From Escherichia coli (GTDB lineage: Bacteria > Pseudomonadota > Gammaproteobacteria > Enterobacterales > Enterobacteriaceae), in NCBI RefSeq assembly GCF_016026235.1, contig NZ_CP065613.1: 64,000 nucleotides of DNA, one strand, 5' to 3'. The notes beneath the pieces are model-generated. The model was not told the DNA's origin. It made no database searches and saw only the letters and a list, made by a program, of their open reading frames with translations. Positions 41,266 through 57,854 of the stretch are shown one piece after another; position 1 is the first letter of the stretch; each line of letters opens with the position of its first letter. The position numbers and the translations under genes were made by a program.

Positions 41266-42312
41266 TTAACGTCCTGCTTTCAGCTTCTGATAATACTCTT
41301 CATAAATGCTACTGGCTGCGCCAACGTCATTTTGCCATTCACCATTTTTAATGGTTTCAGCATCCGGGTAGAGCGTTTTATCGTTCGCCACTTCTGGGCT
41401 TAACAGCTTACGCGCCGCAAGGTTTGGCGTTGGATAACCGATAGTTTCGGCAACCTGTTTTGCCACATCCGGGCGCAGCAGGAAGTTGATCAATTTCAGC
41501 GCGCCTTCTTTGTTTTTGGCATTTGCCGGGATCGCCAGGCTGTCCATCCAGAATATGCCGCCTTCTTTCGGCCACACCACGTCAATAGGCGTACCCGCCT
41601 GGCGTGCAACGAAAGCAGAACCGTTCCAGATCATGCCGAGGTTAACTTCGCCTTCCATGTACGGGTTAGCCGGGTTATCGGAGTTAAACGCTGCGACGTT
41701 TGGCATCAGTTTTTTCAGCTCGTTATATGCAGCTTCAATCTCTTTCGGATCGGTGGTGTTACCGGAGTAGCCCAGCTTACGCAGCGCCATCTGGAACACT
41801 TCACGGGCATCGTCGGTCAACAGCAGGCTGCCTTTGTACTCTGGCTTCCACAGATCGGCCCAGCTGGTGACAGATTTTGGATCCACCGCATCACCGTTAA
41901 CACCAATCGCCGTCGCACCCCAGATATACGGAATGGAGTAATCGTTATTCGGGTCAAACGGCTTATTGAGCATGTCTGGATCGAGATTGCTGAAGTTCGT
42001 TAACTTCGACTTGTCGATCTTCTGGATCATCCCTTCTTTACGCATTTTATCGACGTAATAGGTTGAAGGAACCACCAGGTCATAGGCACCGTCTTTGTAC
42101 GTTTTCAGCTTGGCATACATGGTTTCGTTCGACTCGTAAGTCGAATAGATAACCTTAATACCGGTTTCTTTGGTGAACTGTTCAAGCAGTCCTGGCGGCA
42201 CGTACTCGGTCCAGTTGTAGAAATACAGCGTGTTGTTGTCATCGGCGTGAGCGGCGCTCATGCCCAGTGCCAGAGCACCCGCCGCGAGCAGGTGGCGTGA
42301 CCATTTTTTCAT
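41266..42312 (-). CDS. potD: Spermidine/putrescine periplasmic binding protein PotD
   Basis: 348-aa ORF with a signal peptide (MKKWSRHLLAAGALALGMSAAHA). Confidence 0.93.
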   Translation of the reverse strand: MKKWSRHLLAAGALALGMSAAHADDNNTLYFYNWTEYVPPGLLEQFTKETGIKVIYSTYESNETMYAKLKTYKDGAYDLVVPSTYYVDKMRKEGMIQKIDKSKLTNFSNLDPDMLNKPFDPNNDYSIPYIWGATAIGVNGDAVDPKSVTSWADLWKPEYKGSLLLTDDAREVFQMALRKLGYSGNTTDPKEIEAAYNELKKLMPNVAAFNSDNPANPYMEGEVNLGMIWNGSAFVARQAGTPIDVVWPKEGGIFWMDSLAIPANAKNKEGALKLINFLLRPDVAKQVAETIGYPTPNLAARKLLSPEVANDKTLYPDAETIKNGEWQNDVGAASSIYEEYYQKLKAGR

Positions 42313-43103
42313 TTAACGTCCCCTGTGTTACCTTTCGTTTTATCACGAGCAATAAGCTGGCTGGCAATAACCATCACCAGCGACAGCACCAGTAATATGG
42401 TTGCCAGCGCGTTAACTTCCGGCGATACGCCGACTTTGACCATCGAATAAATTTTTAACGGCAGAATTTCATAACTCGGCCCGGTGACGAACGAAGAAAC
42501 CACCACATCGTCCATCGACAGGGTAAAGCTTAACACCCAGCCCGCCGCCACCGCTGGCATTGCCAGTGGCAGAATGATTTTTCGCAGAATGGTAAATTCG
42601 CTGGCACCGAGATCTTTCGCCGCTTCCAGCATTCGCACGTCAAAACCTTTCAGGCGCGAATACACCGTCACCACCACAAATGGCAGGCAGAAGGTGATAT
42701 GCGAGAACAGCAGCGACCAGAAGCCAAGCTGAATACCCAGCAGCATAAACAGCACCAGCAGCGAAATTGCCATCACGATATCTGGTGACATCATTACCAC
42801 AAACAGCATTCCGCTAACGAACGGCTTACCACGAAAGCGATAACGGTACAGTGCAACTGCCGTCAGTGAACCGATAAGAGTAGCAAACGTCGCCGAAAAC
42901 ACCGCCATTGTTAGTGAATGCTGCGCTGCCTGTAACAGGCTGTCGTTGTTCATCAGCAAGCTATACCATTTAGTGGTAAAACCCTGCCAGTTGATGCCAA
43001 AGCGCGAGCTGTTAAAGGAGTTCACAATCAAAATAATGATTGGGATATACAGGTACGCGTAGATAGCGGTCATAAAACCGCCGCGAAGCAGTCGACCGAT
43101 CAT
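42309..43103 (-). CDS. potC: Spermidine/putrescine ABC permease PotC
   Basis: 264-aa permease; overlaps the potD start by 4 bp. Confidence 0.92.
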   Translation of the reverse strand: MIGRLLRGGFMTAIYAYLYIPIIILIVNSFNSSRFGINWQGFTTKWYSLLMNNDSLLQAAQHSLTMAVFSATFATLIGSLTAVALYRYRFRGKPFVSGMLFVVMMSPDIVMAISLLVLFMLLGIQLGFWSLLFSHITFCLPFVVVTVYSRLKGFDVRMLEAAKDLGASEFTILRKIILPLAMPAVAAGWVLSFTLSMDDVVVSSFVTGPSYEILPLKIYSMVKVGVSPEVNALATILLVLSLVMVIASQLIARDKTKGNTGDVK

Positions 43104-43927
43104 TCGAGTTCCACCTTTTTATTCAGCAGACGAGAAGCGCGCCAGTAAACCAGCAACATCAGGCCCATTACGATAGTCAGCGTAATGCTGGTGGCTGCAC
43201 CAAACGGCCAGTCACGAATATTGAGGAACTGTACCTTGATGACGTTACCGATCAGCAGGTTTTTCGCACCGCCCATCAGGTCGGACACATAGAACAGGCC
43301 CATCGCTGGCAGCATCACCAGCAGACATCCGGCAATAATCCCCGGCATCGTCAGTGGAATAATGATACGGATAAAAGTCTGTAACTTGCTGGCACCGAGA
43401 TCGCGCGCCGCCTCAAGCAACGGCTTATCCAGTTTTTCGATACTGGAGTACAGCGGCATCACCATAAACGGCAGCAGAATGTAAACCAGACCGATAATCA
43501 CCGCACTGGGCGTGAACATGATACGGATTGGTGTGTCGATAACGCCCAGCCAGAGCAAAAACTCGTTGAGATAGCCTTTGGTGCTGAGGAAAATTTTCAG
43601 CCCGTAGATGCGAATCAGTGAGTTGGTCCAGAAGGGAACAATCAGCAGAAACAGCAGCAGCGGACGCACCTTGTGTGGCAGCTTCGCCAGAAACCAGGCA
43701 AACGGGTAGCCCAGCACCAGGCAGGCGAGGGTGGCGATCAGCGCCATATTCAGCGAGTGCAATAGCACTTCAAAATAGAGCGGATCGAGCAGACGTGTGT
43801 AGTTATCCAGCGTAAAGACCATTTTGACGAAACTGGCGTCGTCGCGGGTCAAAAAGCTGGTGCCAATGATCATCAGGTTGGGCAGAAAGACAAACAACAC
43901 AAGCCAACCGACAATAGTGACAATCAC
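43100..43927 (-). CDS. potB: Spermidine/putrescine ABC permease PotB
   Basis: Start set at a GTG to give about 275 aa (MIVTIVGW...); the track ORF begins 10 codons upstream. Confidence 0.88.
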   Translation of the reverse strand: MIVTIVGWLVLFVFLPNLMIIGTSFLTRDDASFVKMVFTLDNYTRLLDPLYFEVLLHSLNMALIATLACLVLGYPFAWFLAKLPHKVRPLLLFLLIVPFWTNSLIRIYGLKIFLSTKGYLNEFLLWLGVIDTPIRIMFTPSAVIIGLVYILLPFMVMPLYSSIEKLDKPLLEAARDLGASKLQTFIRIIIPLTMPGIIAGCLLVMLPAMGLFYVSDLMGGAKNLLIGNVIKVQFLNIRDWPFGAATSITLTIVMGLMLLVYWRASRLLNKKVELE

Positions 43928-43940
43928 TACATTCTGGAAC

Positions 43941-45077
43941 TTACTTGTGTTCTTCATCAGCCAGTACGACCTCCCAGCTTTCTACCCAATTAATGGCCAT
44001 TTTTTGGTCGAGAGAGTGGTCAAAGTCAGGATCGTCTTCATTGAAGAATTCGCTGACCATCACCATCTTGCCATTTTCCAGTTCAACAACCGACTCCAGC
44101 GTCATGCCTTTGTAGTTACGCTCACGAACGTAACCAATCAGCCCTTCAGCGTGGTTGTCGTCGTTAATCTCTTCAACACGTAAGTCTTCCGGGCGCAGCA
44201 GAACATGCAGTTTTTGCCCCGGTTCTACGGCGAAGTTAACGTAGATATTACATTCGCGGCCTTCAACGTTGGCGCGTACGCGCTGCTCGTCGAGACGTTC
44301 GATAACAGTGGCGTTAAACATATTGATTTCGCCAATGAACCCGGCAACAAACAGGTTTTTCGGCTCTTCGTAGATTTCACGCGGCGTGCCGTCTTGCTCA
44401 ATGCGACCATCGCGCATCACCACAATCCTGTCTGACATGGTGAGTGCTTCTTCCTGATCGTGAGTCACGAAGACGAATGTAATGCCAAGCTTACGCTGTA
44501 ACGCTTTCAGCTCGTTCTGCATTTGCTTACGCAGTTTGTAATCCAGCGCTGAGAGCGACTCATCCAGCAACAACAGACGAGGCTTGTTAACCACCGCGCG
44601 AGCAATGGCGACGCGTTGCTGTTGACCACCAGAGAGCTGATGCGGTTTACGTTGAGCGAAGGTTTCCAGCTGCACCATCCGCAGGGCTTCCATCACGCGG
44701 GGCGTAATTTCAGCAGCGGGGGTTTTTTGCATGCGCAACCCAAAGGCCACATTTTCGAACACGGTCATGTGGGGGAAAAGTGCGTAGCTTTGGAAAACAG
44801 TGTTCACATAGCGGTTTTCCGCCGGAACGTGGGTGATGTCCTCGTTATCCAGCATGATGCGTCCGGAATCAACAGTTTCCAGACCTGCAATCAGGCGAAG
44901 AACGGTTGTTTTACCGCAGCCAGAAGGGCCAAGCAGCGTGAGGAACTCGCCATTGTTGATAGTCAGATCCAACTGGGGAATGACCTCTTTACCATCAAAG
45001 CATTTGCGAATTCCCGCCAATTGCACCAGCGGTGAAAGCGAACTCGGTTGTTTATTCAATTTTTTACTCTGTCCCAT
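43941..45077 (-). CDS. potA: Spermidine/putrescine ABC transporter ATPase PotA
   Basis: 378-aa ORF with Walker [10 protein letters not shown] and signature LSGGQQQR. Confidence 0.93.
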
Positions 45078-47898: not shown

Positions 47899-49359
47899 TT
47901 ATTCATCTTTCGGCGTAGAATGCTGGCGACCAAAAATCACCTCCATCCGCGCACCGCCAAGCATGCTCTCTCCGGCGACGATTTTACCCTCATATTGCTC
48001 GGTGATTTCGCGGGCTACCGCCAGCCCTACACCTTGCCCAGGGCGTAAAGTATCAACCCGTTGACCACGGTCGAAAATGACCTCTCGCTTGCTTAATGGA
48101 ATACCGGGTCCATCATCCTCGACCACAATATAGAGATGCTCGTCGGTTTGCCTTGCAGAAATTTCGACAAACTCGAGGCAATATTTACAGGCATTATCCA
48201 GCACATTGCCCATCACCTCGACAAAATCGTTCTGCTCACCGACAAAGCTGATCTCTGGCGAAATATCGAGAGAGATATTGACCCCTTTGCGTTGATACAC
48301 TTTGTTCAGCGCCGAGGTGAGATTGTCCAGCAGTGGGGCGACCGGATGCAGCTCGCGGCTGAGCAATGTCCCGCCGCGCATACTGGCACGATGCAGGTAG
48401 TAGCCAATTTGCTGTGAAATGCGGCTGATTTGCTCCAGCATTACCGGTTCAGCATCACTGACGCTCATCTTTTCACTACGCAGAGAACGCAGCGTACTTT
48501 GCAGCACCGCCAGTGGCGTTTTCAGACTATGGGTCAGGTCGGTGAGCGTTGTACGATATTTGTCGTAACGTTCGCGTTCACTTTTTAACAATCGGTTCAG
48601 GTTTCGTACCAGACTGGTCAGTTCTCGCGTTGTGGCTGGATTGAGCAATTCGCGGTTATGTTCTTCCAGTTCGCGGACTTCTTTTGCCAGAGCTTCGATG
48701 GGGCGTAAACTCCACCAGGCGGCGACCCACAGCAGCGGGATCACTAACAGCAGATTGGCTGAGAGCACATAGATAAACCAGCTCCAGACCATATAGGAAC
48801 TTTTTAGCTCCACCGGAATGGTATCCACCACCACAATGGTTAACTTTGGCATCCGCGATGTTGCCGGGTAGACGTTTACCGCCACCGAGTGGGTCATCTC
48901 CGCGTCGTCATCATCTTCCCGCACTTCCTGCAACTGTTGCTGTATCGAATGATCTCCACTCAGCAAGAGGCTGGTATCGTTAACATCCGCTTCAATTTCA
49001 TGAAAACCATTCGATTTCAGCCAGTCAGGCTGGATCATCTTCATCAGCCAGGGCACGTCACGTTGCGCCCATAAAAGCTGCCCGTTCTCATCATAAATTA
49101 GCGTCATGGTGGGGCTTTGCTTGTCGATATTTTCGGGTAACTCGACATGCAACTTATTGTTTTCCCACTTCGCAAGGGTATAGAACAGATTGCTCTCGCC
49201 ACGTAACAGCCGAAACGTAGTTTTATCGAAACTGACGCTATAACCGATCAGCGCGACCATTCCGTAGGCAAGCGAAAGCACCAGTACTACCGCTGCCGTT
49301 GCCAACAGAAAACGTACCCGCAGCGAGAGCGGGAAAAAAAGACGCAGTAATTTTTTCAT
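47899..49359 (-). CDS. phoQ: Sensor histidine kinase PhoQ
   Basis: 486-aa ORF with two transmembrane segments flanking a periplasmic domain, an H-box ([12 protein letters not shown]) and ATPase domain. Confidence 0.95.
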
Positions 49360-50030
49360 CAGCGCAATTCGAACAGATAGCCCTGGCCGCGAACGGTGGT
49401 AATCACTTCTTGGGGATATTGTGCCTGAATTTTTTTGCGCAGACGTCCCATCAGTACATCAATGGTATGGCTTTCCCGCAGCTCCGCATCCGGATAGAGT
49501 TGGAGCATTAACGAATCTTTGCTGACCACTTTGCCATTATTGCGTATCAACGTTTCCATAATGGTGTATTCGAACGCGGTCAGTTTGATCACTTCGTCAT
49601 TAATAGATAATTCACGGCGAGAGAGATCAACCTGAAACGGGGGTAGCGAAATGACCTGTGAAGCCAGACCGCTATTACGCCGCATTAATGCCTGCATTCG
49701 CGCCATCACCTCTTCAATATGAAATGGTTTAGTCACGTAATCATCAGCACCAGCACTTAATACTTCGACTTTGTCCTGCCAGCTTTCACGGGCGGTTAAT
49801 ACCAGAATCGGCAGTGAAACATCATTGCTACGCCAGCGGCGAATCAGTGACAGACCGTCCTCGTCTGGCAATCCGAGATCGACAATCGCAATATCCGGTA
49901 AATGTTCATTGAGATAATAATCGGCTTCTTTGGCATCTTCTGCATCATCGACCTGATGACCAGCATCCTGAATCTGAACTTTAAGGTGGTGACGTAACAA
50001 CGCATTGTCTTCAACAACCAGTACGCGCAT
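49359..50030 (-). CDS. phoP: Response regulator PhoP (OmpR family)
   Basis: 223-aa [35 protein letters not shown]; its stop overlaps the phoQ start by 1 bp. Confidence 0.95.
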
Positions 50031-50090
50031 TTTTATTTCTCCCTGTCTTAATTATTAAAATAGTGTAACGCGATTATGTGGTTATGGGGG

Positions 50091-50107
50091 TAAACATTAA
50101 ATAAACC
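50091..50107 (-). promoter_or_regulatory. PhoP box (direct repeat) in the phoPQ promoter
   Basis: Minus-strand sequence GGTTTATTTAATGTTTA, matching the (T/G)GTTTA-N5-(T/G)GTTTA PhoP-box form, about 60-80 bp upstream of phoP. Confidence 0.7.
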
Positions 50108-50197
50108 AGCGGGGAGGGGAGGTAAAGTGAAAAAATAAAAAGCGGATAATCTTAATAAGCAGGCCGGACAGCATCGCCATCCGGCACTGATACGAGT

Positions 50198-51571
<1,374 letters not shown>

Positions 51572-54705: not shown

Positions 54706-55956
54706 ATGGAAAGTAAAGTAGTTGTTCCGGCACAAGGCAAGAAGATCACCCTGCAAAACGGCAAACTCAACGTTCCTGAAAATCCGATTATCCCTTACAT
54801 TGAAGGTGATGGAATCGGTGTAGATGTAACCCCAGCCATGCTGAAAGTGGTCGATGCTGCAGTCGAGAAAGCCTATAAAGGTGAGCGTAAAATCTCCTGG
54901 ATGGAAATTTACACCGGTGAAAAATCCACACAGGTTTATGGTCAGGACGTCTGGTTGCCTGCTGAAACTCTTGATCTGATTCGTGAATATCGCGTTGCTA
55001 TTAAAGGCCCGCTGACCACTCCGGTTGGTGGCGGTATTCGTTCTCTCAACGTTGCCCTGCGCCAGGAACTGGATCTCTACATCTGCCTGCGTCCGGTACG
55101 TTACTATCAGGGCACCCCAAGCCCGGTTAAACACCCTGAACTGACCGATATGGTTATCTTCCGTGAAAACTCGGAAGACATTTATGCAGGTATCGAATGG
55201 AAAGCTGACTCTGCCGACGCTGAGAAAGTGATTAAATTCCTGCGTGAAGAGATGGGCGTGAAGAAAATTCGCTTCCCGGAACATTGTGGTATCGGTATTA
55301 AGCCGTGTTCAGAAGAAGGCACTAAACGTCTGGTTCGTGCAGCGATCGAATACGCAATTGCTAACGATCGTGACTCTGTGACTCTGGTACACAAAGGCAA
55401 TATCATGAAGTTCACCGAAGGCGCGTTTAAAGACTGGGGCTACCAGCTTGCGCGTGAAGAGTTTGGCGGTGAACCGATCGACGGTGGCCCGTGGCTGAAA
55501 GTCAAAAACCCGAACACCGGCAAAGAGATCGTCATTAAAGACGTGATCGCTGATGCGTTCCTGCAACAGATCCTGCTGCGTCCGGCTGAATATGATGTTA
55601 TCGCCTGTATGAACCTGAACGGTGACTACATTTCTGACGCCCTGGCAGCGCAGGTTGGCGGTATCGGTATCGCCCCTGGCGCAAACATCGGTGACGAATG
55701 CGCCCTGTTTGAAGCTACCCACGGTACTGCGCCGAAATATGCCGGTCAGGACAAAGTTAACCCAGGTTCTATTATTCTCTCTGCTGAGATGATGTTACGC
55801 CACATGGGTTGGACCGAAGCCGCAGACCTGATTGTTAAAGGTATGGAAGGCGCAATCAATGCGAAGACCGTAACCTATGACTTCGAACGTCTGATGGAAG
55901 GCGCTAAACTGCTGAAATGTTCAGAGTTTGGTGATGCGATCATCAAAAATATGTAA
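54706..55956 (+). CDS. icd: Isocitrate dehydrogenase (NADP)
   Basis: 416-aa [43 protein letters not shown]; full length and uninterrupted. Confidence 0.97.
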
Positions 55957-55978
55957 ACACTACATGTGTTAAATATTT

Positions 55979-56010
55979 AAACGGGCGTATAACACGCCCG
56001 TTGTTTTATT
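55979..56010 (+). terminator. Intrinsic terminator after icd
   Basis: Stem aaacgggcg/cgcccgtt with loop tataaca, followed by gttttattt. Confidence 0.7.
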
Positions 56011-56309
56011 TATGTGGATATTATTAATAGCATATCGAGCATATTTATATAAAACCCATTACTTGAGCCCATATGGGCATATTTTTATAATACAACTCTT
56101 ATGCAAACATTTATTTGTTATTTCGCTTTCTCCTGGAGGACACTCTTGACTGCTTTTGAGTAAACTCCATAAATTCTTGTTGAATGGTGCAATGTTATAA
56201 ATAGTTATAGGATATTCTTTATCCTTAAGGATAATACCAGGCTTAACCAGTGTAGGTAATGCTGCCAACTTACTGATTTAGTGTATGATGGTGATTTTAA
56301 GGTGCTTGC

Positions 56310-56585
56310 GTGGCTTCCATTTCCATCAGATGTCCTTCCTGCTCCGCTACTGAAGGCGTGGTGCGTAACGGCAAAAGCACTGCCGGACATCAGCGCTATC
56401 TCTGCTCTCATTGCCGTAAAACATGGCAACTACAGTTCACTTACACCGCCTCTCAGCCCGGTACGCACCAGAAAATCATTGATATGGCCATGAATGGCGT
56501 CGGATGTCGCGCCAGTGCACGCATTATGGGCGTTGGCCTCAACACGGTTTTACGTCACTTAAAAAACTCAGGCCGCAGTCGGTAA
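56310..56585 (+). CDS. insA: IS1 InsA (transposition inhibitor / N-terminal part of the transposase)
   Basis: 91-aa [43 protein letters not shown]... with a zinc-finger Cys cluster; the A6C slippery site TTAAAAAAC lies at 56559-56567. Confidence 0.93.
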
Positions 56586-57007
56586 CCTCGCGCATACAAC
56601 CGGGCAGTGATGTGATTGTCTGCGCTGAAATGGACGAACAGTGGGGCTACGTCGGTGCTAAATCACGTCAGCGCTGGCTGTTTTACGCGTATGACAGGAT
56701 ACGGAGGACGGTTGTGGCGCACGTCTTCGGTGAACGCACTCTGGCCACACTGGAGCGTCTTCTGAGCCTGCTGTCGGCCTTTGAGGTCGTGGTATGGATG
56801 ACGGATGGCTGGCCGCTGTATGAATCACGCCTGAAGGGAAAGCTGCACGTTATCAGCAAGCGTTACACTCAGCGCATTGAGCGACATAATCTGAATCTGA
56901 GACAACATCTGGCAAGGCTGGGACGGAAGTCACTGTCGTTCTCAAAATCGGTGGAGCTGCATGACAAGGTCATCGGGCATTATCTGAACATAAAACACTA
57001 TCAGTAA
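56504..57007 (+). CDS. insB: IS1 InsB reading frame, expressed as the InsAB' transposase by -1 frameshifting
   Basis: 167-aa -1-frame ORF overlapping the insA 3' end and containing the DDE-like catalytic region. Confidence 0.9.
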
Positions 57008-57854
57008 GTTGGAGTCATTACCACCAGTGTAAATATACTTCCAGGAGGAAGAAATATAGTAGATTGATACCAGATAATCATTTTCATATCACCCCATATG
57101 GCTGAAAAAGATATGCCGCATGTAGGTTGAATTACCGTGTCAATTACTACCCACTTCATTTGTTATGTCTTATCCCACGGTATTTAATATAGTTCATTTG
57201 GATGTTCATTTCTTTATTTTGCATATGAGTATATTACCCCTTCAAAAAATAAATTAATTAAAACGATTGCTTATATAAAACAAAATTTAAAGCAAGGAAT
57301 CTCAATGGATGTTAAACAAAATGAGATTTAGTGAAAACAATAAATTATTCACTTCGTTTTAGATTTGTTTAGCTATAATGTTATACATTCAAATGACTGA
57401 CCATCCTGTAATTAAAACATAGCCTTTATGCTACTTTGTGCCAATTTGCTAAACATTATGGTTGCCTTTTTATATAACGATAATAATGAATATAAGCATG
57501 ACATGAGAATAAGGTTTCAATTTTTGAGTTATATAGGAAAGGTTTAACCTGTTCCTGGCTAAAATACATATAACTGGATGATGACTAAACCAAAACACAT
57601 GTGCGTTAAGTATTGAAACGGGCGTATGGCACGCCCGTTGTTTTTATAAATATATTAAACGTTATGAAATAACGTATAGAAAGTCAAGTGATCACATTTC
57701 AAATATCAATTTGATAGTATTGGCCTGGTGATTATTTATGGGTAGCAATAAAAGGACAGTATTTATCATCCATAGGGATAGTCTCTGTACTTTTATTCCC
57801 ATTATGCTAATGCCTTACTGAATTATGAAGCATTTCTTAAGCATCCAACTTTAG

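Follow-up and report, generated by a model that had tools for sequence, protein, structure and literature searches.

An intact PhoP box at the phoPQ promoter and an IS1-interrupted iraM in an Escherichia coli-type chromosome segment

Upstream of phoPQ in this chromosome segment lies a direct repeat of the kind bound by the response regulator PhoP, and several kilobases away the PhoP-controlled gene iraM carries an IS1 element. The locus thus raises the question of whether the repeat is the site of phoPQ autoregulation, and which outputs of the two-component system would be kept when iraM is interrupted. The analysis covers the window, i.e. the whole stretch of 64,000 nucleotides (64 kb), which is an ordinary E. 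coli-type chromosome segment extending from rne to pdeG and whose nearest relative among 5426 complete E. coli genomes is FDAARGOS_943. The regulation concerned is already known, and the box, IS1 and iraM are all standard; nothing mechanistically new is involved. Coordinates of the features are collected in Table 1.

The direct repeat in the purB-phoP spacer and promoter P1

The initial annotation had placed the direct repeat GGTTTATTTAATGTTTA on the minus strand at 50091-50107, and a minus-strand reading of 49800-50400 located it exactly there, gctGGTTTATTTAATGTTTAccccc containing the 17-mer at 50107..50091. The span of 50031-50197 given for the site is precisely the spacer that separates phoP, whose start codon lies at 50030, from purB, whose stop codon lies at 50198, and the description as a textbook PhoP box upstream of phoPQ was also upheld, because the repeat is base-for-base the box of the phoPQ promoter P1 in K-12 and the corresponding site in Shigella flexneri. 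When the pattern (T/G)GTTTA-N5-(T/G)GTTTA was searched on both strands of the 64-kb window, this was the single perfect match, with 0 mismatches. Chance expectation was estimated with dinucleotide-preserving shuffles of the window (n=100), which gave a mean of 0.02 perfect matches and at least one match in 2 of the 100 shuffles. When 2 mismatches were allowed, 24 sites were found in the window against about 15 expected, so that only the perfect site is informative.

Alignment of the 167-nt purB-phoP spacer with that of K-12 MG1655 revealed a single difference, i.e. one base deleted beside the purB stop codon; the box, the -10 hexamer, the leader, the Shine-Dalgarno sequence and the start codon are all identical, and the gene order purB-phoP-phoQ is also the same. 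The K-12 promoter P1 and its PhoP box were reportedly described by Kato et al. in 1999 and Yamamoto et al. in 2002. P1 is the proximal phoPQ promoter, positively regulated by PhoP, and its transcripts begin 36 nt before the phoP ATG (PMC3536696). When the start was placed from this published 36-nt leader, the PhoP box occupied positions -41 to -25 of P1. The -35 hexamer TTTAAT, which lies within the box, shares only 3 of 6 bases with TTGACA, and a scan of 49700-50400 with the sigma-70 consensus found no self-sufficient promoter. The lack of a consensus sigma-70 promoter together with the poor -35 fits an activator-dependent promoter and is not evidence against a promoter. The features that define P1, namely a box overlapping the -35 region, a recognisable -10 and a poor -35, are thus all found here, and the box lies directly upstream of phoP-phoQ orthologues.

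Experimental knowledge on the same site comes from S. flexneri 2a 301, whose phoP site is the 19-mer tGGTTTAtttaaTGTTTAc, identical to the sequence found here; the promoter fragment carrying it bound phosphorylated PhoP (PhoP-P) in EMSA, and a phoP promoter-lacZ fusion showed phoPQ-dependent activity in low Mg2+, acid and polymyxin, the site conferring autoregulation (PMC5775216). These results were obtained in another strain, in which the site itself is identical; PhoP binding with PhoP- and Mg2+-dependent transcription has also been published for E. coli (cited in PMC2650801). In Salmonella enterica, the PhoP box of phoPQ P1 likewise overlaps the -35 immediately upstream of phoP (Soncini 1995 and Shin 2006, cited in PMC2650801), but the sequence between the half-sites differs from that of the window; positive feedback of phoPQ is needed there for growth in low Mg2+, and this growth is impaired by deletion of the box (PMC2650801). 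On the basis of these features, which nothing in the sequence contradicts, the repeat is very probably where PhoP binds to activate P1, the proximal promoter of phoPQ, on an E. coli (or Shigella) chromosome. By analogy with K-12, Salmonella and S. flexneri, we infer that the box would work in the source strain as it does in these bacteria. In low Mg2+, PhoQ would phosphorylate PhoP, a PhoP-P dimer would bind both hexamers overlapping the poor -35, and the bound PhoP-P would recruit RNA polymerase to the -10 hexamer CATAAT; transcription of P1 from 36 nt before the phoP ATG would then supply more PhoP and PhoQ, which constitutes positive autoregulation.

Table 1. Coordinates of the features discussed, in positions of the 64-kb window
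Feature	Position	Strand	Remarks
phoQ	47899..49359	-	486 aa sensor kinase; A482T relative to K-12; H277 present
phoP	49359..50030	-	223 aa response regulator; I44L relative to K-12; D51 present
AsphoP-equivalent position	49748..50091 (about)	+	3' end abuts the PhoP box
MicA-pairing region of phoP mRNA (-15 to +11)	50020..50045	-	sequence identical to K-12
phoP leader from P1, 36 nt	50031..50066	-	inferred start A at 50066; identical to K-12
Shine-Dalgarno AGGGAG	50039-50044	-	in the phoP leader
P1 -10 hexamer CATAAT	50073..50078	-	12 nt downstream of the box
PhoP box	50091..50107	-	GGTTTA (50102-50107), 5-nt TTTAA, TGTTTA (50091-50096)
Upstream part of spacer, A+T-rich, about 55 nt	50108..50162	-	identical to K-12; K-12 promoters P2 and P3 lie there
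G+C-rich hairpin GCCGGATGGCGATGCTGTCCGGC	50163..50185	-	just past the purB stop codon; from a scan for terminator-like structures
iraM 3' fragment	56059..56254	-	residues 44-107, counting the duplicated 9 bp; cut from promoter and start codon
Left copy of 9-bp target-site duplication ACCAGTGTA	56246..56254		flanks IS1
IS1, complete, 768 bp	56255..57022	+	opposite orientation to iraM
insA	56310-56585	+	in IS1
insB'	56504-57007	+	in IS1
A6C frameshift motif AAAAAAC	56561	+	in IS1
Right copy of 9-bp target-site duplication ACCAGTGTA	57023..57031		flanks IS1
iraM 5' fragment	57023..57159	-	codons 1-46, then 6 foreign residues VMTPTY from IS1; 52-aa product

The remainder of the spacer contains further elements known from K-12. 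The small RNA MicA pairs with phoP mRNA from -15 to +11 in K-12, as shown by structure probing and toeprints, and this translation-initiation region is a pairing site of GcvB as well (PMC3536696); from the sequence of this region, we infer that both pairings would also occur in the source strain. The promoters P2 and P3 of K-12 are located upstream of P1 (PMC3536696). The hairpin that follows the purB stop codon folds as RNA with -20.3 kcal/mol (z = -2.58) and looks like a terminator or a REP element; it separates purB from the phoPQ promoters. An Rfam scan of 49000-51000 (E <= 1) assigned no family to the hairpin and returned a lone snoRNA match of 15 bits, which is meaningless.

Conservation of the site in E. 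coli and Enterobacterales

When the 5426 complete E. coli genomes were searched by megablast with 49300-50300, the arrangement phoQ-phoP-purB was found in 5424, and the same number (5424/5426) have the spacer with an identity of at least 95%; a 100% match to 49300-50300 was obtained among these genomes only for FDAARGOS_943. For a wider comparison, we collected phoP orthologues by scanning species-representative genomes with a degenerate coding pattern for a 15-residue peptide; the scan yielded 104 full-length loci, and the protein encoded by each is a PhoP orthologue of more than 60% identity. The box was then counted in 105 Enterobacterales phoP loci that have at least 400 nt of upstream sequence, basing the count on boxes that end 45-70 nt before the ATG, the corresponding distance in the window being 60 nt. 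A perfect box was present at that position in 45 of the 105 loci and a box with at most 2 mismatches in 81, and a control window of the same size placed 200 nt further upstream contained the box in none (0/105). The box is therefore conserved both within E. coli and among Enterobacterales. This architecture has exceptions, since 24 of the 105 loci, including that of Yersinia, have no recognisable box at that position. In Yersinia, a PhoP site is known upstream of y1795, and only two PhoP targets, autoregulation of phoPQ among them, are conserved among ten enteric species (PMC2650801).

These results also bear on the view that the repeat is merely a chance product of A+T-rich intergenic DNA and has no regulatory role. 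A+T-richness is indeed usual in intergenic DNA, and sites with 2 mismatches are somewhat in excess of expectation (24 against about 15), but only 0.02 perfect matches are expected per window, the box is in exact register with the -10 and the mapped P1 start, the box recurs at a constant distance from phoP across genera with control windows empty, and the site is identical to the one bound experimentally in S. flexneri (PMC5775216). Chance origin is thus vanishingly improbable, being ruled out by the conservation and the published binding data, and the reading as the PhoP-binding site of P1 is retained.

As a separate observation, six representatives of Citrobacter, Enterobacter and Lelliottia, which belong to the 24 exceptions, keep a P1-like -10 (CATAAT/CTGTAAT) and the leader, and at these loci the canonical box is replaced by a different sequence that is itself conserved, e.g. 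CATTTAATTTCATnnCGCTGGTTTCAA. No box with at most 1 mismatch was found within 600 nt at any of the six loci, which may therefore have a diverged or relocated autoregulation site.

PhoP, PhoQ and the antisense promoter within phoP

The initial annotation had regarded phoPQ as functional-looking, and the coding sequences agree with this view: both genes are intact and full length, with the catalytic residues kept, and the phoQ start overlaps the phoP stop. PhoP scores 479.8 bits against the NCBIfam PhoP equivalog (cutoff 336) and PhoQ 957.3 bits against the PhoQ equivalog (cutoff 497); each is at least 99.6% identical to the K-12 protein, and both are identical to the FDAARGOS_943 RefSeq proteins. 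PhoP has D51 and PhoQ has H277, the latter in the motif LTHSLKTPL. Position 44 of PhoP, at which the window differs from K-12, is most commonly occupied by leucine among the 104 orthologues (45 with leucine against 15 with isoleucine), and I44L is unremarkable for this reason.

It can still be asked whether the PhoPQ circuit might be non-functional despite its intact box, owing to I44L in PhoP, A482T in PhoQ or a lesion outside the window. One residue does differ from K-12 in each protein, and trans-acting factors such as mgrB and safA lie outside the window. This is nevertheless very improbable, considering that the same two proteins occur in FDAARGOS_943, that L44 is the commonest residue among the orthologues, that D51 and H277 are present and that the equivalog scores are far over the cutoffs; a working PhoPQ circuit is the reading that we adopt below.

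Synonymous changes in phoP distinguish the window from K-12, and one of them alters the -10 of an antisense promoter. The antisense RNA AsphoP, annotated in the K-12 RefSeq record as b4843, starts 282 nt inside phoP and is about 300-320 nt long, and its promoter has been validated by lacZ fusion and mutation (PMC9600491). The AsphoP -10 hexamer (49736-49741, plus strand) is CGTAAT in the window against CATAAT in K-12, i.e. the K-12 hexamer is lacking here owing to an A-to-G change at -11 (window position 49737), which is a synonymous TAT-to-TAC change of a Tyr codon in phoP. Allele frequencies in the 5426 complete E. coli genomes were examined by exact searches for 30-mer haplotypes. The G allele found in the window was present in at least 3122 genomes (192 + 2930) and the A allele of K-12 in 1873 (1873 + 0), leaving 431 genomes, by subtraction, with other 30-mers at this promoter. 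These counts (3122 G against 1873 A) indicate that the K-12-type AsphoP promoter is the minority allele. Judging from the altered hexamer, AsphoP is probably weak or absent in the source strain.

Interruption of iraM by IS1 and the link to RpoS

The claim that IS1 has knocked out iraM 6 kb away was borne out, as a 768-bp IS1 splits iraM at 6.1-6.9 kb from the box. The gene (56059-57159, minus strand) lies between icd and ycgX, as expected for iraM, and is divided at codon 46 of 107, so that an uninterrupted 107-codon frame is absent. When IS1 and one copy of the duplication were removed in silico, a 107-aa IraM identical to that of FDAARGOS_943 was restored; the rebuilt protein is identical to K-12 IraM at 100 of 107 residues and scores 168.4 bits against NCBIfam IraM (cutoff 121). 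The remaining 52-aa fragment is very unlikely to work, because it lacks more than half of the 107 aa. In addition, a putative 69-codon ORF (56059-56268, minus strand) has a TTG start in the IS1 terminal repeat and continues in frame into the last 61 iraM codons.

The inserted element has every hallmark of IS1, i.e. a length of 768 bp, terminal inverted repeats that match at 20 of 23 positions, the insA and insB' ORFs with the A6C motif of the -1 frameshift, both ORFs matching the NCBIfam IS1 transposase NF033558, and the 9-bp duplication of the target. BLAST of the window against K-12 and FDAARGOS_943 brought out the 768-bp insertion; the locus of FDAARGOS_943, 99.97% identical in the flanks, has no IS1 and a single copy of ACCAGTGTA. 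The codon-46 iraM::IS1 junction with the duplication ACCAGTGTA is absent from all 5426 complete E. coli genomes; exact look-ups of the 52-aa and 69-aa iraM products in public gene calls returned nothing, and a look-up anchored on ycgX yielded ten neighbourhoods, none with IS1 inserted at codon 46. The iraM::IS1 allele is therefore strain-specific, having no counterpart in any complete genome searched; the AsphoP variant is common to most E. coli.

Because of this rarity, one may suspect that IS1 in iraM is not fixed but arose during assembly, as an artefact, or by recent transposition in the culture that was sequenced. The absence of the junction from all 5426 genomes, the intact iraM of the nearest relative and the lack of a public gene call for either truncated product would be consistent with this, but the full signature of transposition (complete 768 bp, an inverted repeat at either end and a perfect 9-bp duplication) and the fact that 31 other genomes also have IS1 in or close to iraM speak against it, and we consider an unfixed insertion improbable. 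The genuine iraM::IS1 allele is therefore assumed in what follows.

Insertions at this locus have been found repeatedly. In 31 of the 5426 complete genomes, IS1 has inserted elsewhere than in the window but no more than about 650 bp from this part of iraM. Strain U1 (NZ_CP041359) resembles the window in having IS1 inside or adjoining iraM, its element being an IS1B inside iraM that removed the first 17 codons; PSJ-32-1 and KTa005 have IS1 upstream of iraM next to deletions reaching pdeG or the ycgX region, and one draft genome has an IS200-like transposase gene in place of the missing iraM. The insertion points and IS1 subtypes of U1 and the other strains that lost iraM are unlike those of the window. 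IS elements thus recurrently strike iraM or its upstream region (55957-57160 in the window). The G+C content of iraM is 34% against 50% for the window, and the region 54706-56060 is 93% identical to K-12 against 97-98% in the flanks. The e14 prophage is absent, icd being intact and iraM following directly after it (54706-56060); because iraM follows icd even though e14 is absent, iraM lies outside e14, contrary to the wording of PMC4045071.

IraM is a PhoPQ-dependent anti-adaptor of RssB that stabilises RpoS under Mg2+ starvation (PMC10948607), and it also connects the activation of PhoQ by osmotic upshift to RpoS (PMC5740661). An intact PhoP-induced iraM would thus provide an anti-adaptor that keeps RpoS safe from ClpXP by sequestering RssB; after the insertion of IS1, the iraM promoter would direct the synthesis of the 52-aa fragment only. 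Since iraM would yield nothing but this fragment, the connector from PhoPQ to RpoS is most likely broken, and the rest of the PhoP regulon would most likely be untouched. It is reasonable to predict from K-12 genetics that PhoPQ responses would be kept and that stabilisation of RpoS in low Mg2+ would be lost. This predicted phenotype depends on genes outside the window, i.e. rpoS, rssB, mgrB and possibly iraL. In K-12 under osmotic stress, deletion of iraM accounts for only part of the PhoQ effect (PMC5740661), which means that PhoPQ may also affect stress tolerance independently of iraM. Salmonella differs in that its PhoP-controlled RssB anti-adaptor is IraP and not IraM (PMC5740661).

The prediction would fail if RpoS were still induced in low Mg2+ through another anti-adaptor, such as IraP or IraD, or an IraL or additional IraM copy encoded outside the window. 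Some E. coli and Shigella strains have just iraL or just iraM, others have both genes or none, and IraL does bind RssB (PMC4045071); moreover, the 64 kb are the only part of the genome visible here. Within the window, however, tblastn with IraM matched nothing but the two pieces of the interrupted gene and found no second iraM or iraL copy. In CFT073, iraL is located on an island at potB (PMC4045071), but the potB site is empty in the window and the potB/potC junction is uninterrupted. Furthermore, IraL is reported to be active in log phase, its promoter being of the sigma-70 type, with no reported response to PhoP or Mg2+ (PMC4045071), and iraP and iraD are not induced through PhoQ in K-12 (PMC5740661). 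A substitute anti-adaptor is therefore unlikely, although with a chance that deserves attention, and loss of low-Mg2+ stabilisation of RpoS remains the expected outcome. Regarding the potB site itself, potA-potB-potC-potD are contiguous in the window (41266-45077), and FDAARGOS_943 has a 47-kb IS-riddled lambdoid prophage (IS66, ISSso6 and IS21) between potB and potC, in which no iraL is annotated.

Beyond annotation, the locus matters little: a textbook positive-feedback promoter of PhoPQ has been kept, and one PhoP-controlled connector has apparently been inactivated. RpoS-dependent protection via PhoPQ, in response to low Mg2+, to acid via EvgS-SafA and to osmotic upshift, is expected to be weakened, and the responses of Mg2+ transport and envelope remodelling are expected to remain. 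It is a speculative and rather improbable idea that the lineage has naturally uncoupled RpoS from the PhoPQ sensor of Mg2+, acid and osmotic conditions, with the autoregulated PhoPQ core left intact and the loss of iraM being an adaptive rewiring, comparable to pathoadaptive gene losses, and not neutral IS noise. The iraM::IS1 allele could serve as a lineage marker.

Two minor points concern the promoter and the family of IraM. A search upstream of iraM for a PhoP box found only candidates with 2 mismatches, at 57277-57293 (minus strand) and 57355-57371 (plus strand), which is the background frequency; if a PhoP-dependent iraM promoter is still intact, it would transcribe antisense into IS1, and transposase expression would then respond to Mg2+. 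Precomputed Pfam matches of ten IraM gene calls place IraM in PF11183 (PmrD). PmrD is a PhoP-activated connector protein in Salmonella, and IraM and PmrD are thus two PhoP-controlled connectors of one family that act on response-regulator-type proteins.
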